IMG/VR virus record: IMGVR_UViG_3300047089_000307
Location: 64,001-128,000 of that record
Reading direction: 5' to 3' (one strand)
Length of the DNA: 64,000 nt
Origin: a virus
Position 1 is the first letter of the stretch; each line of letters begins with the position of its first letter. The notes beneath the pieces were generated by a model that made no database searches, was not told the DNA's origin, and saw nothing but the letters and a program-made list of their open reading frames with translations. Below, one piece after another: positions 3,470-62,525 of the stretch. The translations under genes and the position numbers were made by a program.

Positions 3470-3805
3470 TCACGCCTCCCCGAGCTGCGCGGTCAGGCGG
3501 GCGATCTGCTCGCGGGCCCAGGTCTCGCCGTCACGCGTCTCGTTCTCGGTCGCCGCCAGGACCCGGTCCTCCAGGTCCGGCGCGTCGTTGCCCTGGTGGT
3601 GGCGCATTGCGTTCACGATCGTGCCGACCAGGTTGTAGCGCTTGGTCCGGTGCGTGAACAGGGTCATGTAGAGCAGGCGGCGCGTCTCGTCCAGGTCCTC
3701 GGCATTCGAGGGCCGGGCGGAGCGGGTGCCGTCCTGGGCGACGTCCTGGTCGCGTGCCGTGAGGTTGTCCTGCATTTCCCGGACTGCCTCGTCTTCCGTA
3801 GCCAT
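3470..3805 (-). CDS. Hypothetical protein in tail operon
   Basis: 111 aa ORF co-oriented with and tightly packed against the tail genes. Confidence 0.6.
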   Translation of the reverse strand: MATEDEAVREMQDNLTARDQDVAQDGTRSARPSNAEDLDETRRLLYMTLFTHRTKRYNLVGTIVNAMRHHQGNDAPDLEDRVLAATENETRDGETWAREQIARLTAQLGEA

Positions 3806-3928
3806 TCGTTCCGTCCCGTATCAGGTAGAAGGGCGCATACTCTTGAAGACCGGGTTGTGGTGACCCTGGGCGGAAGGCGCGCGTGCGGCAGGGTGACCTC
3901 GCACGCGCGCCTTTCCCGTGCCCGGGGA

Positions 3929-4456: not shown

Positions 4457-4753
4457 GTGTCGCATGAGGAGCGATGGCTCCCTGTTCCGGGATACCAGGG
4501 CTGGTACGAGGTCAGCGACCTGGGGAACGTCTACGCGATGGCGCGGCCTTTCACGCGCGGTGGCTTGCTGAGGGCGCAGCTGAATTCCGCGGGATACCGC
4601 ACCGTGCGGCTGAGCAAGTACGGCCGCGTCCGGACGGTTACCGTAGGGCGGCTGGTGCTGGCGGCATTCCGCGGGCCAGGAGGGGAAATGCGCGCCCGGC
4701 ACGGCCCGGGGGGCAGGCAGGATGACTCGCTGGGGAACCTGGAATGGGGATAA
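4457..4753 (+). CDS. NUMOD4-HNH homing endonuclease-like protein, short and possibly degenerate
   Basis: WLPVPGYQGWYEVSDLGNV (NUMOD4) followed by RLVLAAF.GP...RH...D.SLGNLEWG, then an immediate stop. Confidence 0.75.
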   Translation: MSHEERWLPVPGYQGWYEVSDLGNVYAMARPFTRGGLLRAQLNSAGYRTVRLSKYGRVRTVTVGRLVLAAFRGPGGEMRARHGPGGRQDDSLGNLEWG

Positions 4754-4954
4754 GACCGGGTGATACGCTAATCCGCATGAGAGAGCAGCCTGCAAGCGGT
4801 TACCGGCGAGCGCTGTCCTGGCACTGCGACCCGCCGCCACGGGGCACGCCCTTCGTGGTGGTCGCCGAGGGCTGGACGATCGCCGGCGGCATGGAGATCC
4901 GGGACATTCATGCGATTGAGGCCCTGTACCCAGAGGAACCGGACGAAGGACAAT

Positions 4955-37111: not shown

Positions 37112-40100
37112 TCGTCCGCTTCACCGGGCTCTGCGCGCCGTGCGCCGTGGGGGAAAGGTAAGGCATTGACCGAGCGGGATGCCATGGAAAGGGCCATGAT
37201 CGCCGTGCGCACGATCCTCGCGCAGTCCAAGGACCCGCGCACCACGCTAGGCCGGATGGGACCTTCCTCCGTGGCCTTCCATGCGGCCTGGGCCGCAGTT
37301 GACACGTACCGCAAGGCCCTGGAGGAAACATGAGTCACTACCTGTCCACCGCGTGCTATCACGAGCACCTGGCCAGCGACCCGGCACTGCACGACGCCTG
37401 CCGCCTGGCCTGCAAGTTCTGCGATGCGCCGTGCAGCTGCCCGCAGCACCCGCAGGAGAGCGGCAGCCCGCGCGCCGTCAGCGGGATCGACCAGGCCCGG
37501 GACATCGCCCGCGAGCTGCTGAGCTTGCTGGAGGAAGCCGGCGGGGTGCCGTACAAGCTCCACGAGCGGCTGAGCGATGACCCGCGGCTGTTCTGGCTGA
37601 GCGGGGGAGAGGCGCCGCCCGGGACGTGGAAGCAGGGGGAGGAGCAGCGGTAATGGCTGACTGCACGGCCTGGAAGGAAACCACCACCCGGCAGGTCTTC
37701 GAGCTGAGCATGCCGTCGAACGCCATCGAGCTGTCGAAGATGATCAGCTGGGCGTGCTCAGCGTATCGATCGGCGCACGGCAAGGAGCCGGCTGACGACG
37801 CGATCACCGTCACGGTCACCGATGACGCGATCATGCTGGGCTACGTGCTGGAGAAGGGCCGGCTGCAATGAGGGCGCTGCGGTGGCTGGCCTGGCTGGCG
37901 GACGAGATCCTGGACCGCGTGCCCGCCGTCGAGGACGGCCGCGTTTACTGGTACGGCGGCTGGGGCTGCCGCCTGCGGATGTCCCGGTTCTGGGACGAGG
38001 GGGATAAGCCGTGAGCGCGGGCTTCTGCCAGCACACCGGGGACTGCTGGGATGACCCGGACTGCGCGCTGCACGGCTCGGGCCTGTGCCCGGCACTGGTC
38101 GCCATCCCCGCGCAGGCCCGTGAGCGCATCCTGCGCCAGCACCGGGAGCTAGGGCAGCTCACGGCGCGGGACGAGGCGCTGGAGGGCGACGAATTGCGCA
38201 AGGTGCGGATGCGCCCCGTGAACGAAGCCGAGGACGACTGGTGAGCGCCGCCACGCCGCGCTCATTCTGGCTCGCCGTGCTCACCCGGGTGCTGGACCGC
38301 GCAGCTGACAGCGCGGAAGAGCGCGCACGCAGGTTATACTGCGAGAGACTTAGAAGGAGGACGGTGATGATGACTGCGCACCGCGGATGCCGTAGTTGCG
38401 GGAACGTCCGAACATGCACGTGCTCCGCCACGTGCGACTGCCGTTGCATCGATTGCCACTGCCATGCCTGATATCCCCATCCGGGCACGGTGCAGTGGCA
38501 TGTGCGCCCTGCACTGCGCCGGCCACGAGTACCAGGCAGAGCTCAGCTCGAAGGACGCGGACCGGCTGCTGGAGTGGCTGCGCAACGGCGACGCGGGGAC
38601 GTTCACCCCGCACTCGCCCAGCCGGCTGTTCATTGACGCCACCGGCAACGGCGGCCTCGTCATCAGGATGGCGCCGTGACCGGCGCAGTGAGCGGGCCGG
38701 CTCCCCGCAGGCCGGTGGTCCCCGGCTCCGGGCAGGCCGGCGAGCCGCGTGACCTCGCGCGCTGCCAGGCCCCGGACGGCACCGGGCACGCTTGCCGGGC
38801 ACGGGCGTCCTGGCGGGTCAGCATCGGCAGCCGCCGCAGCGACGCGCAGCTGGCCTGCGGCCGGCACCTGAACATGGCCGCCCTGGCGATGCTCGGCGCG
38901 GAGGGGCGCGCCAGCGCCGTGCTCGCCGTCACGCCCGTGGCCGGCCTGCGCGCCCTGGCGGGGCTGAGTGAGTACCTGAGCCCGGCGGAGATCCGGCAGG
39001 GGGCGCGGCCATGACCAGCGGGGGGAAGCTGCCCGAGGCCCGGCTGCTGCTGCGCATCAGGTACCGGGGGCCGTGGGAGCGGCTGGAGGGCTTCTTCTAC
39101 GGCGTCCGCGCGGACAATACCCTGCGCTTCAAGATCAGCGAGACCCCCCGCGGCTGGCGACGGGCGGCTGCCGCGCTCGGTGACTACTGCGACCGCCGGG
39201 ACAGCGCCTGGCATGACCGCCATGCACGGGGCGGTACCCGCCCGCATCGCGCCTGGAAGAGGAGAGGGCCGTGATCACGGGCGAGGAGCGGGCCGTCGCC
39301 CGCAGGCTGTGGCCGGATGACGAGGAGACGGACTTCACCGTGGCCGTCGTCCCGGGCGACCCGGCCTGGATACGGCTGTCGTGCTCCGTGCACGGCCCCG
39401 TCATCGCTGCCGTCACCTGGGACCTGGGCGAGCTGCTCGTCGCCGCCGAGCGGCACTACGTCACCCGGCACCTGCGCCCGAACCGGGCTGCCCGCCCTGG
39501 CGAGTGCTCCTTCTGCTCGGGCGGGATGGCGGACTACTGCACCTGCCCGCCGGAGGAGGCACCGTGATCAGCTTCAGTGACACTGGCCGCGCCATGACCC
39601 TCATCGCCAGCATCAGCGCAGCCAAGGAGACGCACCCGGGCTTCTGGCCGATGCTGGTCACGCGGATCGTCACTGACCTGGACATCGCCGGCGATGAAGC
39701 GGCCGTGGCGATGATCGTGAGGCTGCTCGCCCTGCTGCGGGGCCAGCTGGAGGACAGGGTCACGGTGCCCGCCAGCGCCCAGGACGTCAAGGTCCGCGTG
39801 AACCGCCTGCGCAGGATGGCCAGGCGGCAGGGCCTGCGGCTCGTCAAGTCGCGGCTCCGGGACCCGCTCGCGCCCGGCTTCGGCCGTTACCAGGTGGTGA
39901 CGGCACAGGGGGAGGAGCCAGAGCGCTTCACCTCGCCCGGGGGATGGGGCCTGACGCTCAGTGAGGCTGAGCGGCGCCTCACGGAGACCGCCGCGGCAGC
40001 GCGCACGACCTTCCGCTGGCAAGGCGAGTGCCCGAACTGCGGGGACCCCGCCGCTGAGGACCTGTGCGCCCGGTGCCAGGCCCTCATGCAGTCCCCGGCC

Positions 40101-47498: not shown

Positions 47499-48740
47499 TT
47501 ACCATCCGGCGATAGTCAGTGACCGCTCCGCCCTCGTCACCGCGGTGTACAGCCACCGGCTGCGCTCGCCAGTTCCGGGCGCCGGCCAGCCCTCCTCAAT
47601 GACCAGCACCTTCTCGGCCGAACTTCCCTGTGCCTTGTGGGCTGTGAGTGCGTAGCCATAGTCAAAGAGCGCGACATGACGGTCCCTGACGCAGGATGCC
47701 TGGAACTTCGGGTCACCGAACGGCAGCGCTGATACCGTCCCCGACCACGGGCGGAGGAGGTCCTCGCATTCGATGACAGCCTGGAATGTGGCCTCACTAC
47801 CGGGCCCTGTTACCCCTCCCACGGCCAGGATGGTCCCGCGCTGACCGTTGTACAGGCCCTCTGCGTGGTTATTGCGAAGGCAGGTCACCGTATCGCCGAC
47901 CTGCGGCGGCCCGGACCGGCCGTGCCACGCGCGCATCAGCTGGTTGTGCGCTGTCCTTGCGGCGTTAGTCGCGCAGATGATCAGGTCCGCCTCAGCCGGG
48001 TGCAGGCCGGCCAGCCCGGACTCATGCTCGGCCATCGTCAGCTTGACCGCATCCGGCCCGTACCAGCCGGGCGGCACGTGGCCCTGCTCGCGCGCCCACC
48101 GCGCCATGGTGAGGATGGCCATGCCAGACGGGCTTTCCTCGTTCTGCCGGTGGATCTTCTCCAGCCGGATATCCGGGCTGGCCATCAAGTTGAAGGACGA
48201 GCGGACGGGCGGCAGCTGGCCGTGGTCGCCGACCGCCAGCACCGGAACGCCATGGCCGGTCAGGTCCTTCCAGAGCTGCTCGGGGATCATCGATGCCTCG
48301 TCGGCCACGACCAGTCCGATGCCGGCGAGCGGCTCCGGCGCCGGCGTGAAGCTCAGCTGGCGGCGCACCGCGCACTCCCAGCCCCGTCCGGCGTGCGCGC
48401 GGCACTGAACGTCCGCCTCCTTCATTACCGTGTCACTCTCGGTGCACACCGTAACCTCACAGGCACGGTAGAGCAGCCGGTGCAGGGTGGACGCATGATC
48501 CGGGGGGACGTCACCGGGGAGCTTGCGCCGCAGCACGGACGTCGCCTTACCGGTGTAGGCGGCGAACGCGATCCGGATATCAGGCAGGAACTGCGGCAGG
48601 CAGCAGATCAGGCTAGTCTTCCCGGTTCCCGCCAGCCCGCCCAGGGTCAGCGGCGGCCAGCCCCCGGCCTCATGCCACGCCAGGATCTGCGTGAGCGCGC
48701 GGCGCTGGTCCGCGGACAGGGTCTCCGTCAGGTCAGTCAT
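47499..48740 (-). CDS. RecD/Dda-like SF1B DNA helicase
   Basis: GLAGTGKT, AYTGKA, STLHRLLY, DEASM, GDHGQLPPV, YALTAHKAQGS and WLYTAVTRA. Confidence 0.92.
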   Translation of the reverse strand: MTDLTETLSADQRRALTQILAWHEAGGWPPLTLGGLAGTGKTSLICCLPQFLPDIRIAFAAYTGKATSVLRRKLPGDVPPDHASTLHRLLYRACEVTVCTESDTVMKEADVQCRAHAGRGWECAVRRQLSFTPAPEPLAGIGLVVADEASMIPEQLWKDLTGHGVPVLAVGDHGQLPPVRSSFNLMASPDIRLEKIHRQNEESPSGMAILTMARWAREQGHVPPGWYGPDAVKLTMAEHESGLAGLHPAEADLIICATNAARTAHNQLMRAWHGRSGPPQVGDTVTCLRNNHAEGLYNGQRGTILAVGGVTGPGSEATFQAVIECEDLLRPWSGTVSALPFGDPKFQASCVRDRHVALFDYGYALTAHKAQGSSAEKVLVIEEGWPAPGTGERSRWLYTAVTRAERSLTIAGW

Positions 48741-48791
48741 AGACCCCAAGATACCGGTAACAGGGCCCGGCACCGAGTGAAACGGCGCCGG

Positions 48792-50404
48792 GCTCCCGTG
48801 CCTGCCTAGCCAGGCCCGTCCTAGCCGAGCCATTCCTGCCGGGGCGGGCCGCGCCCAGCCCTGCCTAGCCTTGCGACGCCTGCCGAGCCTTGCCCAGCCG
48901 CGCCACGCCAAGCCCTGCCTGCCCAGCCGAGCCTAGCCCAGCCGCACCACGCCTAGCCATGCCTGCCACGCCAGACCTTGCCCTGCCTAGCCATGCCTGC
49001 CGGACCTCGCCTCACCTAGCCAAGCCATGCCGCGCCTGCCCTGCCGTGCCGCGCCGGGGCCTGCCGAGCCTAGCCATGCCTGCCTAGCCGAGCCCTGCCG
49101 AGCCTAGCCATGCCATGCCTGCCAGTCCTGGCCTTGCGTCACCCCGCCTTGCCCCGCCGTGTCCATCCCTTTTACGCCGGATGCTGCTGCTCCCGTGCCT
49201 GCCCGGCCACGCCAGACCTCGCCGCGCCTAACCTCACCTGCCCCGCCATGCCAGACCTTGCCGCGCCTAACCTCACCTGCCGCGCCAGACCTCGCCATGC
49301 CCTGCCGTGCCTAGCCGTGTCCATCCCTTTGCGCCGGATGCTGCTGCTCCCGTGCCTGCCGCGCCGCACCTGGCCATGGCTAACCTCACCGCGGCTGCCG
49401 AGCCGATCCCAGCCGTGCCTAGCCGTGCCGGCCCTGACCTCGCCTGCCCTGCCGCGCCGCGCCTGACCCAGCCAGGCCACGCCATGCCTGCCGCGCCGAC
49501 GCGCGCCACCCCGTGCCAAGCCACGCCCTGCCTGCCGGTCCCCGCCTAGCCCCGCCTGGCCATGCCAGCCCGAGCCATGCCTGCCTTGCCAGACCTTGCC
49601 TCGCCGTGCCTTGCCGTGCCTGCCCGGCCTCGCCACATCGCGCCATGCCTCTCCTTGGCCAGCCTCGCCATGCCTGCCCCGCCTGGCCTCGCCGGACCCT
49701 GCCCTGCCGCGTCCATCCCTTTACGCCGGATGCTGCTGCTCCCGTCCCTGCCGGTCCCGGCCTAGCCTCACCGAGCCTGACCTGCCTGACCGCGCCATGA
49801 CGCACCGAGCCTTACCGGTCCCTGCCTGCCATGCCACGCCACCCCGTGCCAAGCCCTACCTGCCCTGCCGCGCCGCGCCCTGCCGTGCCGTGCCTCGCCT
49901 GCCGCGCCTGGCCCTGCCGCACCGCACCATGCCACGTCCATCCCTTTACGCCGGATGCTGCTGCTCCCGTGCCGGCCAGACCTGCCGAGCCATGTCGTTC
50001 CGCTCCGCGCCATGCCCTGCCTGCCAAGCCACGCCCCACCCCGCCGAACCGAGCCATGCCTGCCAGGCCGTGCCGAGCCGCGCCTAGCCACGCCACGCCA
50101 TGCCTGCCGGGCCATGACGCACCGCGCCTTGCCGCGCCACACCGTGCCTGCCCCGCCTTGCCAAGTCCATCCCTTTGCGCCGGATGCTGCTGCTCCCGTG
50201 CCTGCCCCGCCTAGCCAAGCCTTGCCACGCCGCGCCTTGCCTGCCGGGCCGGACCCCGCCGGGCCGGACCATGCCGAGCCGCACCATGCCGTGCCTGCCG
50301 GACCGGACCACGCCACGCCGCACCATGCCGTGCCTCGCCTGCCGCACCAAGCCTCGCCGGACCCCGCCTTGCCATGTCCATCCCTTTCAGCCGGATGCTG
50401 CTGC
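48792..50404 (-). ncRNA. GGY-NN pentamer array, putative guide-RNA array (VIPR-like)
   Basis: Minus strand reads GGC AA GGC GG GGT CC GGC GA GGC TT GGT GC GGC A GGC ... for ~1.6 kb, split into six blocks by a conserved ~42 bp repeat; lies directly downstream of the RAMP-like operon. Confidence 0.8.
49161..50404 (-). repeat. Six copies of a conserved repeat (up to ~42 bp) inside the array
   Basis: Plus-strand GTCCATCCCTTT(T)RCGCCGGATGCTGCTGCTCCCGT starts at 49161, 49319, 49711, 49936 and 50165; a variant starts at 50376; a partial GCTCCCGTGCCTGCC is at 48792. Confidence 0.95.
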
Positions 50405-50854
50405 CTTCTTCACCTGCGCCTCGTGCTCGGCGATGACCTCGGCAAGCTCCTGCCAGAACTCGGGGTAGTCGCGGTACCGCTGGGCCATGGAGCGGACCTC
50501 GCGGCGGATGCGCAGCAGGATCAGGCCCTGCTCCTGCGTCGTGAGCGAGGTGACGCTGGAGTACGTGCCGGGCGGCGAGGGGATGCCGATCATCCGGTCG
50601 GCCACGTACTTGCGCATCATGACCGCGCGCTGGCCGCCGGACGCGACCTCGCGGACGACGGCCACCCGGTAGCTGCGGATCAGGCCGCGGGCCTCCTCCA
50701 GGCGGCGCTGCGCCGCGGCGATGGCGTCATCCCAGGTGAACAGCCCGTGCAGCGCGCTGTCCTCCGGCCGTGCTGCCGCCACGACCTCATCGGCGTGCAG
50801 CTTGCCGCGGGAGTCCTCCAGCCCCTTCAGGGCCTTCAGTACCTCATCCCTCAC
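50387..50854 (-). CDS. Accessory protein coupled to the RAMP-like gene
   Basis: GTG start overlaps the upstream TGA; L.ADEVV.AAR.EDS.LH..F.WDD..AA...RL.EAR.LIR motif; 155 aa. Confidence 0.8.
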   Translation of the reverse strand: MRDEVLKALKGLEDSRGKLHADEVVAAARPEDSALHGLFTWDDAIAAAQRRLEEARGLIRSYRVAVVREVASGGQRAVMMRKYVADRMIGIPSPPGTYSSVTSLTTQEQGLILLRIRREVRSMAQRYRDYPEFWQELAEVIAEHEAQVKKAAASG

Positions 50855-51543
50855 AGGACTATCTCCTTGACCTCGGCGTCGTCCGGCACCCGGAACGTGC
50901 CGTAGGAGCCAGTATTGGATTCCTTGCTGGCCGGGCGCCACTCGCCGATGCCCGCGAAGCCGGCGGCGTCCACCAGCGCGATGACGGACTCCAGCGTCAG
51001 CGAGTTGCGCACCCAGACCACCTCCAGCACCGCCGACCACGGCCAGTACTCCGGCCGGAAGCGGATGTCGGCGACGCCGGTCTCGTTGCGCGCGTAGTCC
51101 TGGCGCATCACCGCGGTGGCCGGGACGAGCGCCGACTCCTCGCCGGTCCACTCCCCCCAGACGGGGACCAGCAGCGTGCGGTTCGCCTGGTCGGTGCCCG
51201 GCTCGCCGTTGACGAAGATCATCCGGCGCAGGTCCGTCATGGGCAGCTTGGAGCCCTTGAAGAACCGGGCCGCGTCCACGATGGCGGCCTTGAAGCCGAC
51301 CGAGGGGAACGCGGGGGCGCCGCCGGGGAGCAGGTGCTGGGCGTCGCGGAAGTTCTGCTCCGGGTCCTTCGGCTGGCGCTCGACGGGCTTGCCCATCTGC
51401 CGGTCGAGCATGATCTGCTGGGCCTTGGCGCTGAACTTGTTGGTGATGAGCGGGGTGAGGCCCTGGACGGGCACCCGGATCATGGAGCGGCCGAGCCGCT
51501 GGAGCGAGATCGCGCCCGTGGTGGTGGCCTTCGCTGGGGGCAT
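50851..51543 (-). CDS. Stand-alone Cas7/RAMP-like RNA-binding protein (Vipr-like)
   Basis: N-terminal strand with GLTPLI, FPSVGFKAAI (compare RAMP P.ss.KG), R.RP....W and a C-terminal Gly-rich loop GFAGIGEWRP...GSYGTF.V; AAAGGGA RBS. Confidence 0.75.
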   Translation of the reverse strand: MPPAKATTTGAISLQRLGRSMIRVPVQGLTPLITNKFSAKAQQIMLDRQMGKPVERQPKDPEQNFRDAQHLLPGGAPAFPSVGFKAAIVDAARFFKGSKLPMTDLRRMIFVNGEPGTDQANRTLLVPVWGEWTGEESALVPATAVMRQDYARNETGVADIRFRPEYWPWSAVLEVVWVRNSLTLESVIALVDAAGFAGIGEWRPASKESNTGSYGTFRVPDDAEVKEIVL

Positions 51544-52501
51544 CAGGCTTCCCTTTCTTCTTTACATGGACTGACTGATACCCCACGATACTCTAAGACT
51601 GCTATCCTGGACTACATGAGCACTAAGGGCATGAAGGGTCACGGGGGCATCGATCCGTATGCAGGCAACGGCTGGTCCTCCCTGTACTGCCACGACTGTG
51701 AGCAAACCTGCTCCCCGGCTAGCCCGTGCGACCACTGCGAGCCGGAGGTCTGCACCAGCAAGGGCCGCGTGATCTACCGGGGGCCTGAGCGAGTGCAGGG
51801 GACAGGGGGATGGGAGCGCGAGCCGTGAGCTACCAGGGCAGCAACCGCAATGACGAGAAGGCACCGGATGAGGTGACGGGCACGCTGCTGGTCACGGTCA
51901 CCGTATACGGCGGGACGCTGGCGGACGCGGCGACCGCGCTGTCCAGTTACCGGGGCAAGGGCTGGGGCCGGGAGATGACCGACCTGCTAAATGGCGGGGA
52001 GTTCGAGGTCATCGCCGCTGACGTCGCTAAGGACGTCACGGCCGGCGACGCTGATCCTGACGTCATGAGCGAGCAGGAGCTGCGCGAGGAGATCACCCGG
52101 GTCGTCCTCGCGCAGCGAGCAGACTGCGCGGAGCACCCGATGCCGTTCCCGCGGCCGTCGTGCTGGGCGTGCGCCCGCAACGGGGCCTTCCACCGGGCGG
52201 CGCTGCTCGCGGCGGGCCGCTGGCCGGCCGCTGACCCGGTGACGTACGTGCTGCCCGCTCAGCCGGGCCGCTGGCCGGCCGCTGACCCGGAAGGAGCTGA
52301 TGACGAGACGGCCGCGCCAGCCAGGCACAAGGCACGCGTGCGCAGCACCGGCCTGCGCTATGACGGCGTGCGGCTGTGGCGCTGGGCCTGCCCGCACTGG
52401 GACCAGGGCCGGAACCGGAACTGCCGCGGCGGCGACTACGGGTCCTGGGCCATGGCCGTCCGTGACGCCGTCCGGCACGCCGGGTCAGGCGGCACGGCCT
52501 G

Positions 52502-55981: not shown

Positions 55982-57388
55982 TCAGTAGGACCGACCGAGA
56001 ATGGCGATTATTCCCGGCTCGTCGTCGGCGTCCGGCAGGCCGCCGTCCGGACGGAACAGGCACCGTACGGAGACCCCGGAAGCGTTCGCCTTCGCTTCGC
56101 CGTCAAGTCCGACGCGGTCCCAGGGCACCCGCGCCCAACCAGACGCCGACGCCTCGATGGCCTCGTCCACCGTGGACACGTCGACGGTCTTCGCCTCGCG
56201 GTAGGCCAACGCCTCGTCGTACAGCGACTGCTGATCTTTCTCCAATGCGGCGACCACCGTCGACATCACATCGTCGAATACGACGGGCTCCTTCGTGCCA
56301 CTGACTCGCCGCACCACCGTCACCCGGCCTTCGGCGATATCGCGGGGACCGACCTCCACCCGAATCGGATAGCCCTTCAACTCGGCATCAATCGCCCGGC
56401 GCCCGTATGGCGTGTCGACCCGGTCGTCCAAGCTGACCCGGACGCCCGCATCACGCAGTGCGTCCCGCAGCTTGTGCGCGGTGGCGACGACGCCTTCACC
56501 GGCCGTCACGGCCACCACGAGCGCTTGGATCGGGGCGAGGCGGGGTGGCACCCGCAGACCGTTGTCGTCGCCGTGGCACATGATCATGCCGCCGACCATC
56601 CGCGTCGAGCTGCCCCATGACGTCGTGTTGCAGAACTCCTGCCCGCCGGACGCGCTGGTGAACTTGATGTTGAAGGCGCGCGCGAAGTTCTCGGTGAACT
56701 CGTGCACGGTACCCATCTGCAGCGCCTTCCCGTCGCGCATCATGCCCTCGAACGTGTAGGTGCAGGTCGCCCCGGCGAAGCGTTCCTTCACCGTCTTCCG
56801 GCCGAGAACGACTGGCATCGCGAGTACGTTGACCATGTAGTCCCGGTACACCTCGTGCAGGATCCGGCGCGCGAACGCCCGGGAGTCGGCGAAGTCCACA
56901 TGGGCGGTGTGGCCCTCTTGCCAGAGGAACTCAGACGTTCTCAGGAAGATCCGCGGCCGCATCTCCCAACGCACCACGTTCGCCCACTGGTTGAGTAGCA
57001 GCGGCAGGTCGCGATAGCTCGAAATCCACTTGGCCATCATTTCGCCGAACATCGTTTCGCTCGTGGGGCGCACGACCACGGGTTCGGGCAGTTCCTTGCC
57101 GCCGGCGTGTGTCACGAGGGTGAGCTCCGGGCTGAAGCCCTCCACGTGTTCCGCCTCGCGTGCGAAGTAGTTCTCCGGAACAAACAGCGGGAAGTACACG
57201 TTTTGTGCTCCGGTCGCCTTGATCCGCGCCTCGACCTCGGCCACCATCCGCTCCCAGATCGCATAGCCGGCCGGGCGTACCACCATGGTCCCGCGCACCG
57301 GCCCGTTGTCGGCCAGTTCGGCCTTCGCGATCACATCCTGGTACCAGCGGGGAAAGTCTTCGCCTTGAGGAGTAAGTACTTGCGCCAT
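55982..57388 (-). CDS. proS: Prolyl-tRNA synthetase (archaeal/eukaryote-like type)
   Basis: EDFPRWYQDVI..AEL.D.GPVRGTMV, HVEGFSPEL, VRPTSET, QWANVVRWE.RP..FLRT.EFLWQEGHT, anticodon-binding domain and C-terminal GRSY. Confidence 0.95.
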   Translation of the reverse strand: MAQVLTPQGEDFPRWYQDVIAKAELADNGPVRGTMVVRPAGYAIWERMVAEVEARIKATGAQNVYFPLFVPENYFAREAEHVEGFSPELTLVTHAGGKELPEPVVVRPTSETMFGEMMAKWISSYRDLPLLLNQWANVVRWEMRPRIFLRTSEFLWQEGHTAHVDFADSRAFARRILHEVYRDYMVNVLAMPVVLGRKTVKERFAGATCTYTFEGMMRDGKALQMGTVHEFTENFARAFNIKFTSASGGQEFCNTTSWGSSTRMVGGMIMCHGDDNGLRVPPRLAPIQALVVAVTAGEGVVATAHKLRDALRDAGVRVSLDDRVDTPYGRRAIDAELKGYPIRVEVGPRDIAEGRVTVVRRVSGTKEPVVFDDVMSTVVAALEKDQQSLYDEALAYREAKTVDVSTVDEAIEASASGWARVPWDRVGLDGEAKANASGVSVRCLFRPDGGLPDADDEPGIIAILGRSY

Positions 57389-57560
57389 GACCGCAAAGCG
57401 TACCCTGCTCAACTTCTTGTTAAAGACTTTTACAGACAGTAATACTGATTGCCTGGTCATGAGCACACGCCTGGCGTCGACAACCACGACCCCAACAGAC
57501 CTGCGGGAACCTTGCGATTCTCCTTGCACCGCCTCGTGCACGCGGAGTACGTTCGGGGCC

Positions 57561-57749
57561 ATGTCGCTCCTCGCGCCCCCGCTCGTCTCCCTGGCCCGGA
57601 AGAAGGCCGCCTACACCAGGCATTACGGCAGCGAGGACGAGCGCGCCCTGGCCGCGGCCTCGCAGCTGCGCGTGGCCCGCCTGCTGGCCGAGATCGACAG
57701 CCTTACCCAGGACGAGCGCACGCAGCTGCTCGCCGCGCTGACCGCGTAA
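57561..57749 (+). CDS. Small helical protein upstream of primase
   Basis: LARKKAAYTRH...LTQDERTQLLAAL. Confidence 0.45.
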   Translation: MSLLAPPLVSLARKKAAYTRHYGSEDERALAAASQLRVARLLAEIDSLTQDERTQLLAALTA

Positions 57750-57836: not shown

Positions 57837-60800
57837 ATGAGCGCGACGGGCGGGGCAGGAGTGTTCTCCGGTGCCGCCGCGGACTACGTCCTGGCCGGCT
57901 GGCCGTGCGTGATCCCGGTCCCGCCGGACGCCAAGTTCCCCCCGCCGGCGGGATTCACCGGGGCCACCGGGACGGACACCACCACCGAGGACATCGTGGG
58001 CTGGGCCGGCAACGGGATGTCCGGGTTCTCCGTCGCGCTGCGGATGCCGGACGGCGTCATCGGCATCGACGTGGACGACTACGTGAAGAACGGCACCGTC
58101 AAGGCCGGCGCCGCCACGCTGGCGCAGCTTGAGGCGGAGCTGGGCGCGCTGCCGCCGACCTGGTCCTCGACCGCGCGGGGCACGCCGGCCGGGCCCGGGC
58201 TGTCCCGCATCATGTTCTTCCGGGTGCCCGCCGGCCGCTACGCCACCCGGTGCGGCGCCGACATCGACGTCATCCAGCGCCATCACCGCTACGCCGTGGT
58301 CGCGCCGTCCCCGCACGCCGGCGCCGGCGCCCGCTACCGCTGGTACCGCCCGGACGGCACGCCCGCCATGGACGGGGAGGTACCGCGGCCGGGCGACTTC
58401 CCGCTGCTGCCGGACTCCTGGGCCAAGCGGCTGGCGGAAGGCGCCACCACTGCCGGGCCGCCGCCCGCTGACCCCGCCAGCGGGCGGGCGCTGCTGGACT
58501 GGCTGCTCGCAGACCAGCGGATGCCGTGCGCGGAAGCCGACGAGGCGGGGCGCGCGGCGGCGGCCGAGCTGGCAGGAGCCCCGGCCGGCTCGCGGCACGA
58601 CGCGATGACCGGGCACGTCTACCACGTCATCGCCCTCGGCGCGGAGGGCCACGCGGGGGCCGGGTCGGTGCTGGGCTGGCTGGAGCAGCGCTGGGAGGAG
58701 CTGACCGGGGCGGAGAACCGCGGCGGGGAGTTCGACCGGATGCTGTTCACCGCCGCGCGCAAGGCGGCGGGCCGGGCGATCCCCGACCCGTACGCCGACC
58801 CGTGCATGGACGCCCGGCCGCTGGGCTGGGACGCGCTGGCCGCCCCGCTGGACGACGACGCCAGCGCCGACGACGCGCTGGAGGCGCCGGCCCAGTGGTC
58901 ACCGAGGCACGCCTGGGGCGCGCACCTGTTCGCCACCTCCGCCCAGCTGGACTCGGTGCTGGCCCGCGACATCCTCATGCGCACCTACCCCGGGCTGCGC
59001 TACGCCGCCGACGCCGGGACCTGGCTGCTGCGCGGCCCGCTGCGCTGGGAGGCCCGGCCGGGCGAGCAGGCCCGCTGGGCGGTGGAGGAGATGTTCTGGC
59101 TGCTGCCGCGCGGTGACTCAGGAGCCCCGGAGGGCACCGAGCCGCACGAGCAGGCCAAGCGGCGCGCCCGGTTCGGCACCAACGCCGGGGCCGGCGCCAT
59201 CGCGGCCAAGATGACGGCCCAGGTGATGGGCGGGCACCACCCGTGCTCGCTGGACATGGCCGGCCTGGACCATGACGCCGAGATCCTGTGGGCCGGCGGC
59301 TACCCCTACGACCTGCGGGCCTGCGGGAGCGGCCCGGTGCAGGCCGCGCTGAGCCTGGAGACCGTGCACATGCACAGCGCCGGGTGCGCGCCGCGGCGGG
59401 GGGCGACGCCGCTGTGGGATGCCTTCCTGGCAGCCGTCTGGCCAGATCCGGAGGTGCGCGCGTGGGCCGTCCGGGTGCTGGCGGTCACGCTGACCGGGTA
59501 CAGCGACAAGGCGCTGCCGATCCTGCTCGGGCCGACCAACCGGGGCAAGACGCAGGTGATCGCGCTGCTGATGTCGGTGCTGGGCAGTTACGCGCACGCG
59601 GCCGACCCGCGGCTGCTGGCCCCGGCCGACCGCAGCCACGCCTCCATCGTGCACGCGCTGAAGGGGCGCCGCTGCTCGTTCATCGATGAGGCGCCCCGGT
59701 CCGGGCAGCAGGCCCAGGAGCGGCTCAAGCAGCTGACCGGCGGCGGGGAGCTGACCGGCAACCGGATGGCCGAGAACCCGATCACCTTCAAGCCCACGCA
59801 CACGCTCATCCTGACGGCCAACCCCGGGTCGGAGCCGAAGCTCACGGACGGGGCCGTGCGCAGCCGGGTGCGGCTCATCCCGTGCGAGGGCGACCCCGAG
59901 GCGGTGCGCGCGGCCCGCGCGGCGATCGGCCCGCTGGCCGGCCCGGCCTGGCGCGCGGAGGCGCCGGCGGTGCTGGCGATGATGATGGCGCAGGCCGCCG
60001 CGTGGCTGGCGGACCCGGAGTCGGCCTCCACCGAGCGGGCGCCGCTGTGCGTGCGCGCGGCGGCGGACACCGCGGCAGCCGCGCAGGACCTGGCGTACGC
60101 GTGGCTGACCGAGGAGTGCGAGCACTGGGAGGCGGGCACGAAGGCGGGCCAGCTGTACCAGGAGTTCGTCGCCTGGTGCCGCCGGGTCAACGTCGCCCCG
60201 CATGACATCCCCAAGATGACGGCGTGGGGACTGCGCCTCAATGACCTGGGGTACCTGCCGCAGAAGCGCCGCGACGCCAATTACCGGCAGCTGCGCGTCC
60301 GCCTGGGCGGCTACGACGGCGGCCTCGCACCCTCCACGGTGCCCACGGCAGCACCCTCCGCGGTGCCCGCGGCAGCGCCCGTACCCTCCACACTGCCCTC
60401 CGCGGGACTCGCTGCGCCCGTACCCTCCACGGTGCCCACGGCCGGGAATCCGGCTGCAACTCCCGCGGTGCCCGCTGCACCCCCCGCGACGGTGGAGGGT
60501 ACGGCTCCTGTGGAGGGTCTGGTGGAGGGTACGTGGAGGGTTGACGGCAAACCCTCCACACTGCAAAACCCCAGGTCAAACCCTCCACAACTATCCACTG
60601 TGGAGGGTGTGGATACCCTATCGCCTGTTATACGCACGCACACACGCACACACACACACACACACGTAAGTGAATACCATCCAACCCTCCACACTCTCCA
60701 CAACCCTCCCCCACCTGCGGAAACGCATTTTGAACCCTCCACAGACCCTCCGCAACCCTCCACGCCCCCCGCAGACCCTCCGCAGCTACCCTCCACGGCC

Positions 60801-62525
60801 ACCGGGACCGTCGCCTTCGACCTGGAGGGCGGCAGCGCCGACGAGCTGTTCACCTACCGGCCGCACGACGAGCGCGGGTACGTCCGGCTGGCCGGCAGCC
60901 TGACCGCGGGCGGGGCGCCGGTCATCACGGGCGCGCCCGCGCTGCTGGAGCGGCTGGCCGCGGCGGGCGAGATCACCGGGCACAACATCCTCGGCTTCGA
61001 CCTGCCCGCGCTGGCCTGGCACTGCGGCGCGGACTTCGAGGCGCTGGCGGCGAAGGCGAAGGACACCGAGCTGATCGCCCGGCAGGCGTGGCCGCCGCGG
61101 TCGCGGGAGGGCGGGCACTCCGCGGACGGCTACGGCCTGGACGCGGTGGCGCAGCGCCTGGGCATCCCGGGCAAGACTGATGACCTGGCCCGGCTCAAGC
61201 GCAGGCACGGCGGCTACGACAAGATCCCGCTGGACGACCCGGAGTACCTGTCGTACCTGGAGGGCGACCTGGCGGCCACGGCGGCGGTGTCCGCGATGCT
61301 GGGCAACGACGCCTACACCGTGCGCGAGCACAAGCTGGCCACGCTGGCGGGCCGGATGACGCTCAACGGCTTCCTGGTCGACGTCCCCCTGCTGGAGCAG
61401 CGGATAGCGCAGGGCCAGGAGCGCAAGGCCGCGGCGCTGGGGCTGCTGCATGACGGCTGGGGCCTGCCGCTGACGAGAACACTGGCCCGGGGCCGCGGCA
61501 AGGCCCGGCATGAGGTGACGGAGGAGCTCGACTCCCCCCTGAGCGCGGAATCCGGCAGGGAGTGGCTGGCGGGCGTGCTGGAGGGCTACGGGGTGACGGT
61601 GCCGCGGACGCCGAAGCAGGGCAAGCCGGCGGTGGGCGACGAGCAGCTGAGGGCCATCGCCGCTGACCCGGCCTGCCCGCAGCCGCTGCGGCAGCTGATC
61701 GCGTGCGTGAAGATCGTGGTGGGCACGCGGACGGTGTACCAGACGGCCGCGGACTGCCTGGCCCCGGACGGGCGCGTGCACCCGGGCAACAGCTTCCGGC
61801 AGGCGTCCGGGCGCTGGTCGGTGACCAACCCGGGGCTGACCGTCTTCGGCAAGCACGGCGGGCGGCATGCCGAGCGCGACATCTTCGTCCCCGACCCCGG
61901 CCACGTGCTGCTGTGCTTCGACCTCAAGCAGGTGGACATGCGGGCGATGGCCGGGCACTGCGGCGACCCCGCCTACATGGCGCTGTTCGCCCCGGGCCGG
62001 GACGCGCACGCGGAGATCGCCGCGCAGGTGGGCATCAAGCGCCAGGACGCCAAGGCGATCGGGCACGGCTGGAACTACGGGCTGGGCGCGAACCGGATGA
62101 TCCGCAACGGCCTCGATGAGGCGCTGGTGCGCAAGTTCATCGCCGGGATGACCGAGCGGTTCCCGGTGCTGATCGCCTGGCGCGAGGAGATCCGCGCGGC
62201 GGGCAAGGCCGGCGACGTGCTGGACAACGGCTTCGGCCGCCGGATGGCGTGCGACCCGGAGCGCGCCTACACCGTGGCCCCGGCGCTGATGGGCCAGGGC
62301 GGGGCGCGGGACATCATGGGCGAGTGCCTGCTGCGGCTGGACCGCTCGCTGTGGCCGCTGCTACGGGTGATGGTCCACGATGAGATAGTCTGCTCGGTTC
62401 CTAAAGAGGATGCTGTTGACGTAGCGCGGCAAGTTACCAGGGCGATGACATGGACCTGGCGGAATGTCCCTATACTTTGTGATCTCAGTGGCGGAAGCAG
62501 CTGGGGAGAGGCGTCTGCAAAGTGA
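57837..62525 (+). CDS. Fused Prim-Pol primase / SF3 (D5-like) helicase / family A DNA polymerase
   Basis: IDVD primase motif and VVAPS; GPTNRGKT and FIDE; exonuclease FDLEG, GHNILGFD and YLEGD; polymerase motifs DLKQVDMR, RQDAKAIGHGWNYG and VHDEI. One uninterrupted ORF. Confidence 0.9.
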   Translation: MSATGGAGVFSGAAADYVLAGWPCVIPVPPDAKFPPPAGFTGATGTDTTTEDIVGWAGNGMSGFSVALRMPDGVIGIDVDDYVKNGTVKAGAATLAQLEAELGALPPTWSSTARGTPAGPGLSRIMFFRVPAGRYATRCGADIDVIQRHHRYAVVAPSPHAGAGARYRWYRPDGTPAMDGEVPRPGDFPLLPDSWAKRLAEGATTAGPPPADPASGRALLDWLLADQRMPCAEADEAGRAAAAELAGAPAGSRHDAMTGHVYHVIALGAEGHAGAGSVLGWLEQRWEELTGAENRGGEFDRMLFTAARKAAGRAIPDPYADPCMDARPLGWDALAAPLDDDASADDALEAPAQWSPRHAWGAHLFATSAQLDSVLARDILMRTYPGLRYAADAGTWLLRGPLRWEARPGEQARWAVEEMFWLLPRGDSGAPEGTEPHEQAKRRARFGTNAGAGAIAAKMTAQVMGGHHPCSLDMAGLDHDAEILWAGGYPYDLRACGSGPVQAALSLETVHMHSAGCAPRRGATPLWDAFLAAVWPDPEVRAWAVRVLAVTLTGYSDKALPILLGPTNRGKTQVIALLMSVLGSYAHAADPRLLAPADRSHASIVHALKGRRCSFIDEAPRSGQQAQERLKQLTGGGELTGNRMAENPITFKPTHTLILTANPGSEPKLTDGAVRSRVRLIPCEGDPEAVRAARAAIGPLAGPAWRAEAPAVLAMMMAQAAAWLADPESASTERAPLCVRAAADTAAAAQDLAYAWLTEECEHWEAGTKAGQLYQEFVAWCRRVNVAPHDIPKMTAWGLRLNDLGYLPQKRRDANYRQLRVRLGGYDGGLAPSTVPTAAPSAVPAAAPVPSTLPSAGLAAPVPSTVPTAGNPAATPAVPAAPPATVEGTAPVEGLVEGTWRVDGKPSTLQNPRSNPPQLSTVEGVDTLSPVIRTHTRTHTHTHVSEYHPTLHTLHNPPPPAETHFEPSTDPPQPSTPPADPPQLPSTATGTVAFDLEGGSADELFTYRPHDERGYVRLAGSLTAGGAPVITGAPALLERLAAAGEITGHNILGFDLPALAWHCGADFEALAAKAKDTELIARQAWPPRSREGGHSADGYGLDAVAQRLGIPGKTDDLARLKRRHGGYDKIPLDDPEYLSYLEGDLAATAAVSAMLGNDAYTVREHKLATLAGRMTLNGFLVDVPLLEQRIAQGQERKAAALGLLHDGWGLPLTRTLARGRGKARHEVTEELDSPLSAESGREWLAGVLEGYGVTVPRTPKQGKPAVGDEQLRAIAADPACPQPLRQLIACVKIVVGTRTVYQTAADCLAPDGRVHPGNSFRQASGRWSVTNPGLTVFGKHGGRHAERDIFVPDPGHVLLCFDLKQVDMRAMAGHCGDPAYMALFAPGRDAHAEIAAQVGIKRQDAKAIGHGWNYGLGANRMIRNGLDEALVRKFIAGMTERFPVLIAWREEIRAAGKAGDVLDNGFGRRMACDPERAYTVAPALMGQGGARDIMGECLLRLDRSLWPLLRVMVHDEIVCSVPKEDAVDVARQVTRAMTWTWRNVPILCDLSGGSSWGEASAK
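60330..60800. repeat. Iteron-like CCCTCC(A/G)C repeat cluster and CA run, putative replication origin
   Basis: More than a dozen direct CCCTCCAC-type and inverted GTGGAGGG copies around an AT-richer core with a (CA)n tract near 60635-60665. Confidence 0.6.

Follow-up and report, generated by a model that had tools for sequence, protein, structure and literature searches.

A large high-GC phage with a very probable VIPR system of the staggered kind, its guide array built of six cassettes

VIPR (Viral Interference Programmable Repeat) systems have been described in three 2026 preprints, among them bioRxiv 10.64898/2026.04.26.720920 and bioRxiv 10.64898/2026.04.26.720927 (refs 1 and 2 below). 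In these accounts a VIPR locus comprises a minimal RAMP protein, Vipr, usually an accessory gene, vap, and vrRNAs in which GGY and NN alternate; such loci lack a CRISPR array and are found mainly in viruses or proviruses (refs 1, 2). One Vipr protomer is bound per repeat with the GGY buried, and the NN dinucleotides pair with double-stranded DNA (dsDNA), one base being skipped per unit (refs 1, 2). The reported outcome is the transcriptional silencing of competing mobile elements (refs 1, 2). Here, we describe a locus at positions 48,792 to 51,543 of a 64,000-nucleotide stretch of DNA (the window), which corresponds to bases 64,001-128,000 of the IMG/VR virus record IMGVR_UViG_3300047089_000307, a contig of 158,651 bp and 68.8% GC. 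The locus consists of a gene for a 230-residue protein, a gene for a 155-residue protein and an array of GGYNN units, all on one strand, and it is very probably a bona fide VIPR system, of the staggered kind, in a large high-GC phage. Coordinates are those of the window, except that those marked G000 are whole-record coordinates (window coordinate + 64,000).

Seven types of VIPR are distinguished, and the forms taken by the array include staggered ones, with a 1-nt overlap between vrRNAs, and others interspersed with ribozymes (refs 1, 2). In staggered arrays the point where one vrRNA ends is where the following one begins (ref. 1, legend of fig. S18). The systems that have been characterised belong to phages of E. 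coli and Pseudomonas, and actinophages are not named in the main text (refs 1, 2). Type II is represented by Escherichia phage SUSP1 and a Pseudomonas fulva prophage (Protein Data Bank (PDB) entry 36pp); its vrRNAs, as described there, are ~100 nt long, contain 9-16 units and end in an invariant 3' pseudoknot tail. In the cryo-electron microscopy structure from SUSP1, G1 and G2 of the GGY are contacted by H17, D177, R138 and W178, and Y3 by R179 (refs 1, 2). A further residue of SUSP1 Vipr, K33, serves the skipped base (refs 1, 2).

The 230-residue protein matches no Pfam family and, in PHROGs, belongs to phrog_4652, the function of which is given as unknown. A word-index search retrieved 122 relatives, down to ~35% identity. 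When a profile of the family, built from 58 sequences, was compared with 177,635 distinct PDB sequences, the sole match was chain D of 36pp, the 'SUSP1 Vipr protein' (E 4.6e-9); the single sequence against SUSP1 Vipr gave E 0.015. In the hidden Markov model (HMM) alignment, the thumb arginine of SUSP1, R138, corresponds to R163, and the G-loop residues D177-W178-R179 correspond to E201-W202-R203; R163, E201, W202 and R203 all show at least 90% conservation in the family or are invariant. Judged from its sequence, the protein is a Vipr, homologous to the characterised SUSP1 protein and with those GGY-contacting residues kept that could be aligned. An AlphaFold2 model is confident (pLDDT 90.5, pTM 0.85), and Foldseek returned more than 100 matches to it at E <1e-3, the best of them to the Csm3/Cas7 subunits found in type III and type VII effectors (E 6e-7, TM 0.44-0.53). 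The modelled fold is that of a minimal RAMP, with an RRM core, a thumb and a glycine-rich loop. The original prediction, made from the letters of the window without database searches, had proposed a RAMP/Cas7-like protein translationally coupled to the 155-residue one, and had likened the architecture to that of VIPR. These proposals have held. The two genes lie where it placed them and overlap, the TGA stop codon of vipr and the GTG start codon of vap sharing GTGA; the fold check gave the Csm3/Cas7 matches just described; and VIPR proves to be a published system, of which every defining feature that could be tested was found at the locus (RAMP fold, profile match to SUSP1, arrays and vap).

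Vipr shares with the Cas7/Csm3 proteins of class 1 CRISPR-Cas systems (types III, IV, VII and I) a mode of assembly, established for Cas7 and reported for Vipr, in which subunits polymerise on the guide RNA at a regular nucleotide step and bases are flipped periodically. Vipr advances by 5 nt, with three bases buried and the guide read non-contiguously, whereas Cas7 advances by 6 nt, with one flipped base; the sequence identity of Vipr to Cas7/Csm3 is 9-16%. The closest solved folds being Csm3/Cas7, it might be supposed that the gene is a fragment of a class 1 system, an orphan Cas7/Csm3 that serves a CRISPR-like array and not the GGYNN array. A candidate array is indeed present elsewhere in the same phage, at G000 39,216-40,040, with 12 identical repeat copies of at least 26 nt and a period of ~72 nt. 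This explanation is nevertheless extremely unlikely. The CRISPR-like array lies ~75 kb from the locus, ~24 kb before the start of the window; the locus itself has no repeat-spacer array, no Cas5, Cas6, Cas10 or Cas8 and no adaptation genes, and no cas genes or CRISPR repeats occur in the operon or among its neighbours (a helicase, genes of unknown function and a primase-PolA fusion). Furthermore, by sequence the family profile matches Vipr and no Cas7, and the family co-occurs with GGYNN arrays, not with CRISPR repeats. The original prediction had also noted the lack of cas1, cas2, cas3 and a CRISPR array, which is correct for the locus; the phage as a whole does carry the distant CRISPR-like array.

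The array, which lies directly downstream of vipr and vap on their strand, has a period of five nucleotides, the autocorrelation at lag 5 being 0.54, compared with 0.20-0.34 for lags 1 to 4. A dynamic-programming parse resolves it into 239 perfect GGYNN units, 53 others whose GGY has one mismatch and 35 four-nt units. GG is constant (100%), Y is mostly C (83%) and otherwise T (17%), and NN is hypervariable: 16 of 16 dinucleotides are used, with an entropy of 3.84 of 4 bits. Perfect tracts of at least four units are confined to the array within the window (28 of 28, all on one strand), and genome-wide 28 of 31 lie in it, where second-order Markov simulations give ~4 per genome.

Whether gene and array belong together was judged from related loci. 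The search for these used an 18-sequence subset of the 58 homologues, the 58-sequence alignment being too diverse, and 97 homologue loci were collected, from three cultured actinophages, two metagenomic contigs, 12 contigs of bacterial assemblies and 80 IMG/VR contigs; with the locus described here, 98 loci were compared. At least eight perfect same-strand pentamers are found immediately upstream and/or downstream of vipr in 86 of the 97 homologue loci. Summed over all 97, same-strand pentamers number 3,740 and opposite-strand ones 51, and the link between gene and array holds over a range of locus GC from 0.41 to 0.73. The expectation in the original prediction that homologues adjoin GGY-NN arrays is thus borne out. 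Its description of a ~1.6-kb same-strand GGY-NN array is right as to extent and strand, but the array is not uniform, being built of guide blocks and six cassettes.

These results also bear on the suggestion that the 1.6-kb region is coding, for a repetitive Gly/Ala/Arg-rich protein, or is a structural DNA repeat, such as a G-quadruplex, that stands beside a RAMP gene by coincidence. Minus-strand open reading frames (ORFs) of up to 182 aa do run across the array, and the strand of the transcript is 48% G, with a GG every 5 nt. A period of 5 nt, however, cannot be a codon period, and GC content is flat across the codon phases of the array (0.70/0.78/0.73), whereas that at third codon positions (GC3) is 0.85-0.98 in real genes; for both reasons, the array is not coding. 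The recurrence of a same-strand array beside the homologue in so many unrelated loci, over so wide a range of GC content, is beyond coincidence, and we give this explanation next to no credence. Guides read as peptides yield forced translations only, and no motif is claimed for them.

Several of the homologues belong to cultured phages. Hypothetical proteins of Mycobacterium phages Saal, Donkeykong, Quico, Florinda and others, and of Gordonia phages ODay and UmaThurman, are Vipr homologues with 34-41% identity. As at the locus described here, they adjoin same-strand GGYNN arrays, some of them staggered, and a Vap homologue is present in ODay and UmaThurman. They differ in belonging to temperate phages of 50-60 kb, where the locus is next to the immunity/integration cassette or among the tail genes, and in having small arrays (19-61 pentamers), which in the mycobacteriophages are upstream of vipr. 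The array that adjoins the vipr homologue, itself annotated as hypothetical, is at 3598-3844 of the Saal locus (L001) and at 4617-4912 of the UmaThurman locus (L003). In the latter, gp40 (L003 4625-4948) lies almost wholly over the array and probably results from an erroneous ORF call.

The grammar of the array has three levels: GGYNN pentamers, blocks of 6-10 pentamers, and six cassettes (Table 1). There are ~36 guide blocks, each closed by a 4-nt GGCA unit (33 of the 35 four-nt units are GGCA). This stagger is equivalent to a final GGCAG whose last G serves the next GGY, a -1 slip between blocks, and because of it the periods reported by Tandem Repeats Finder (19, 24, 29, 34, 39 and 44) are all of the form 5n-1. 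Consecutive guides overlap by 1 nt, ...GGCA[G]GCNN..., at putative processing sites, which is the arrangement of a staggered array. The GGCA stagger recurs in many relatives, one of which (L022) shows great regularity, its seven guides being 12-13 units long; the guides of relatives have 11-14 units, compared with 6-10 in the present array. In an Rfam scan of 48600-51700, no family, the hammerhead included, was found on either strand at E up to 1, and hammerhead ribozymes between vrRNAs were thus not detected in this region.

The five cassette delimiters (33-34 nt) are identical except at the Y position and for one extra A. The 3' half of a delimiter is the head element that is found before cassette 1, and the 5' half (GGCA-GGCAC-GGGAGC) is the motif that closes the last cassette. 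Each delimiter therefore represents the 3' handle of one cassette together with the head of the next, and the array looks like six concatenated arrays. In four relatives (L004, L005, L006 and L019) the head element is present as a single copy, ahead of the array. Its arms, CAUCY and GGAUG, are kept in relatives while the loop varies from 9 to 30 nt, which hints, tentatively, at a hairpin. The hairpin that follows the last handle (48799..48761) is of a different order, at -37.4 kcal/mol with a z-score of -3.2; its U tract is weak and it was missed by a simple terminator scan. It is probably the end of the array transcript, and the array of L004 and two stand-alone vrRNA genes of the same phage (see below) end in the same way, with handle and hairpin. 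Some guides are near-duplicates (25/26 and 28/29/31/32), a pattern that points to growth by duplication and drift. Near-identical phage contigs with an identical Vap end ~210 nt into the array. The phage occurs in several metagenomes, among them runs SRR26075032, SRR26077553 and SRR26075154.

The locus can now be set against the two published forms that it most resembles. With the staggered VIPR of fig. S18, as far as its legend describes it, the present locus shares a viral vipr-vap operon, surroundings free of cas genes, a GGYNN array on the strand of the operon and the 1-nt overlap of guides. It differs in being an array of arrays, with a head element of 29-33 nt before each of the six cassettes where its closest relatives carry one. 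It differs also in its short guides and in size: its 185 pentamers in perfect tracts exceed those of every one of the 97 homologue loci, where the highest count, taken with 4-kb flanks, is 143. With type II it shares a homologous Vipr with the thumb arginine and the D/E-W-R of the G-loop, GGYNN units, a vap partner, its occurrence in a phage and a genome that also holds solo vrRNAs; by analogy, one protomer per pentamer and 1-nt-skip pairing with dsDNA would be common to both. The guides are unlike those of type II in number of units, in having no individual tail and in being delimited by GGCA, and there is a conserved element 5' of each cassette. Since a per-guide 3' tail or pseudoknot is lacking and the sequence similarity is distant only, the locus is not a member of type II.

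The 155-residue protein was used in a single phmmer pass, which found 73 matching ORFs over the 97 homologue loci, most of them directly after vipr. For this reason it is regarded as a conserved accessory gene, vap in the published terms, in which vap1-6 are distinguished. Its predicted fold is weakly winged-helix-like, and it has no detectable sequence match to any solved structure. Some published vap genes are described as encoding winged-helix DNA binders (refs 1, 2), and the protein may possibly be one too, in which case it would agree with that description. A motif near its N-terminus, L-x-P-x-x-V-V-x-x-A-R (residues 8-37, 50760-50830), resembles a single TAL-effector repeat, LTPEQVVAIAS. 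This resemblance is not taken as homology, the profile E value of 1e-9 against the PDB being a sum over 12 repeats.

The two stand-alone vrRNA genes lie outside the window, on the plus strand, at G000 141,159-~141,255 and G000 144,921-~145,020, both in intergenic gaps between minus-strand genes. They share the leader AGTATGCGG, a 9-mer that occurs at only these two places in the genome. After 7-9 pentamers each has a GGCA-GGCRYGG handle and then a hairpin, as in the last cassette of the array. Solo vrRNAs have been published for VIPR (refs 1, 2). A third GGYNN tract, at G000 60,950, is in coding-like sequence without leader or handle and was treated as a chance occurrence.

The composition of the guides was considered with respect to targeting. 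The NN positions are ~51% GC in a genome of 69% GC. Scored against phage codon positions 1-2 on either strand, the NN dinucleotides have a log2-likelihood of -717, compared with -801 to -900 for registers that include the wobble base and -760 for genome-wide dinucleotides. This composition fits a targeting mechanism, as compatibility and not as proof. Targets were sought as 1-nt-skip patterns, with 0-, 2- and 3-skip patterns and shuffled guides as controls; the published criterion for a natural target is an NN match of at least 80% under the 1-nt-skip rule (refs 1, 2). In the phage's own genome, guides of at least 6 units and the two stand-alone guides gave no match above the shuffled controls, and in 688 kb of fetched homologue loci guides of at least 7 units gave nothing above the controls. 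Exact scans of IMG/VR gave no hits for guide 3 or for guide 2+AG, eight for guide 7, and 12 each for guides 32 and 2, and an exact scan of a metagenome collection gave three hits for guide 3. These counts are near a rough chance estimate, and no hit attracted a second guide; the hits of guides 7 and 32 were mostly on unrelated low-GC contigs. It should be noted that the scans were of low power, with exact patterns only and the host not identified, and they carry no weight against targeting. That the guides have no match in their own genome fits the VIPR mechanism, since the published control is also without self-targeting.

A number of observations weigh against reading the locus as a VIPR system in full working order. 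The homology to SUSP1 Vipr spans only the C-terminal third of the protein, from the thumb to the G-loop, and H17 and K33 of SUSP1, in the N-terminal part, gave no HMM alignment; K40 is invariant in the family, but of unproven equivalence. The 3' tail and pseudoknot of the characterised type II vrRNAs are absent from the array, and the maturation of staggered guides is not described in the main text of the published accounts (refs 1, 2). The head element and the delimiters have minimum free energies no better than those of shuffled sequences (z -0.04 to +0.9), two small hairpins compete, and no covariation was found in the head element. A uniform model fits the NN dinucleotides as well as the codon model does (-720 against -717). 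Transcription, processing, formation of the ribonucleoprotein, DNA binding and silencing are, for this locus, argued by homology. Finally, the GGY is mismatched in 53 pentamers and a small number of guides are fragments, one or two units long, such that part of the array may be decaying.

The last point can be taken further, to a VIPR-derived locus that is no longer a guide system, its array in decay or the product of runaway tandem amplification and most of its blocks not matured. Apart from the mismatched pentamers and the very short blocks, such a view could appeal to the length of the guides, below the 9-16 units published and the 11-14 of relatives, to the lack of targets found, and to the state of L005. 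This is the closest relative with DNA examined (L005 2855-4379; its Vipr is 89% identical), and it has lost vap, so that the head element comes directly after the vipr stop codon; its array is visibly degraded. Here, however, vipr and vap are intact, with the strong codon bias typical of real genes in this genome (GC3 0.98 and 0.94), and the conserved residues are all present. The many perfect pentamers, the near-identity of the five internal delimiters, and the intact 3' handle and terminal hairpin are equally difficult to reconcile with decay, and two separate stand-alone vrRNA genes have been kept with the same handles. The target searches were, as noted, of low power. On balance we consider a defunct locus improbable, less so than either of the two explanations dismissed above, and retain the reading of a VIPR system of the staggered kind. 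The features of the locus are collected in Table 1.

Table 1. Features of the VIPR locus in window coordinates.
Feature	Coordinates	Strand	Basis
vipr, 230-aa minimal RAMP (Cas7-like) protein	51543..50851	-	ORF
vap, 155-aa accessory protein	50854..50387	-	ORF, start GTG
Upstream intergenic gap, 87 nt, relatively AT-rich	51544..51630	.	between vipr start and divergent 65-aa ORF
vrRNA array, 1.57 kb, ~36 staggered guides in six cassettes	50373..48803	-	tokenisation, guide list, composition
Head element copy 1, 29 nt, GCAGCAGCATCCGGCTGAAAGGGATGGAC, overlaps vap stop codon	50376..50404	-	read from sequence
Cassette 1, guides 1-4	50203..50373	-	guide list
Cassette delimiter 1, GGGAGCAGCAGCATCCGGCGYAAAGGGATGGAC (3' handle of one cassette + next head element)	50165..50197	-	sequence
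Cassette 2, guides 5-10	49974..50162	-	guide list
Cassette delimiter 2	49936..49968	-	sequence
Cassette 3, guides 11-14 and one more ending in variant handle	49750..49933	-	tokenisation, guide list
Cassette delimiter 3	49711..49743	-	sequence
Cassette 4, guides 15-23, longest	49357..49708	-	guide list
Cassette delimiter 4	49319..49351	-	sequence
Cassette 5, guides 24-26	49200..49316	-	guide list
Cassette delimiter 5, 34 nt, one extra A	49161..49194	-	sequence
Cassette 6, guides 27-35	48803..49158	-	guide list
Terminal 3' handle, GGCACGGGAGC, running into strong GC-rich hairpin	48761..48802	-	fold, sequence

The gap upstream of vipr is presumed to be the promoter region of the operon. A sigma-70 consensus scan found no promoter in it, a consensus that suits actinobacterial and phage promoters poorly. 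The 65-aa ORF on its far side (51631..51828, plus strand) is called as a gene on the near-identical contigs. Beyond the terminal hairpin of the array, by 20 nt, is the start of a gene for a Dda/RecD-like helicase (48740..47499, minus strand). Some vap genes are helicases (refs 1, 2). A helicase of this kind does not adjoin vipr in Saal, ODay or UmaThurman, and nothing of the sort is evident in L004; given its absence from beside vipr in these relatives, we treat it as a neighbour and not as a component of the VIPR system. Its nearest phage relatives are from proteobacterial phages, at ~34% identity, which gives no information on the host. When 15 kb of the window was compared with a phage collection by megablast, there was no match.

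The locus as a whole sits within the replication module of the phage. The module includes a 1,562-aa fusion protein (57837-62525, plus strand), which has a primase/helicase-like N-terminal part (phrog_1156, E 5e-99) and a C-terminal part that is a family A DNA polymerase (PF00476, E 2e-28). A 526-aa protein (55982-57562, minus strand) resembles class II aminoacyl-tRNA synthetases, with Pfam matches to tRNA-synt_2b (E 3e-12) and HGTP_anticodon (E 6e-17).

By homology with the published systems, the locus would work as follows. Transcription from the vipr promoter would run across the array as far as the terminal hairpin and give a single precursor, to be cut into ~36 vrRNAs of 6-10 units. Vipr protomers would then polymerise on each, one per pentamer, burying the GGY and presenting the NN, and the resulting filament would pair with dsDNA as NNxNNx..., skipping one base per unit, and silence transcription. 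The likely targets, going by the published systems only, would be rival mobile elements that share its host. The original prediction had likewise supposed that each subunit grips one GGY and displays the NN, and that rival phage or host DNA could be the target, a proposal that has no other basis than those systems. Vap, possibly as a winged-helix DNA binder, would assist.

To this scheme we add some suggestions of our own. The six cassettes may have come about by tandem amplification of a whole unit, consisting of head element, guides and 3' handle; the repeated head element may be a processing or assembly signal; and the guides may diversify through duplication and point change. It is conceivable, though on present indications rather doubtful, that the six-cassette array represents a distinct mode of vrRNA production and expansion. 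The reiterated head element (GCAGCAUCC-loop-GGAUGGAC) would in that event act as a signal for processing or filament nucleation, by which the 1.6-kb precursor is resolved into six sub-arrays and these into the ~36 guides. New guides would arise by duplication of cassettes and guides with drift of the NN positions, of which the near-duplicate sets would be the trace, in place of acquisition in the CRISPR style, and the phage would field a VIPR repertoire, two stand-alone guides and a CRISPR-like array together.

The picture of what VIPR is stays unchanged by this locus; what is notable is the size of its array, the organisation in cassettes and the existence of cultured relatives. Together with the family traced from it, the locus places VIPR in actinophage-like viruses of high GC content. 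A tractable model for staggered arrays is offered by the cultured phages of M. smegmatis and Gordonia terrae in which vipr genes are annotated as 'hypothetical protein'. The array itself would be an example of how a guide repertoire may grow without Cas1 or Cas2, through the amplification of whole cassettes and the duplication of guides.

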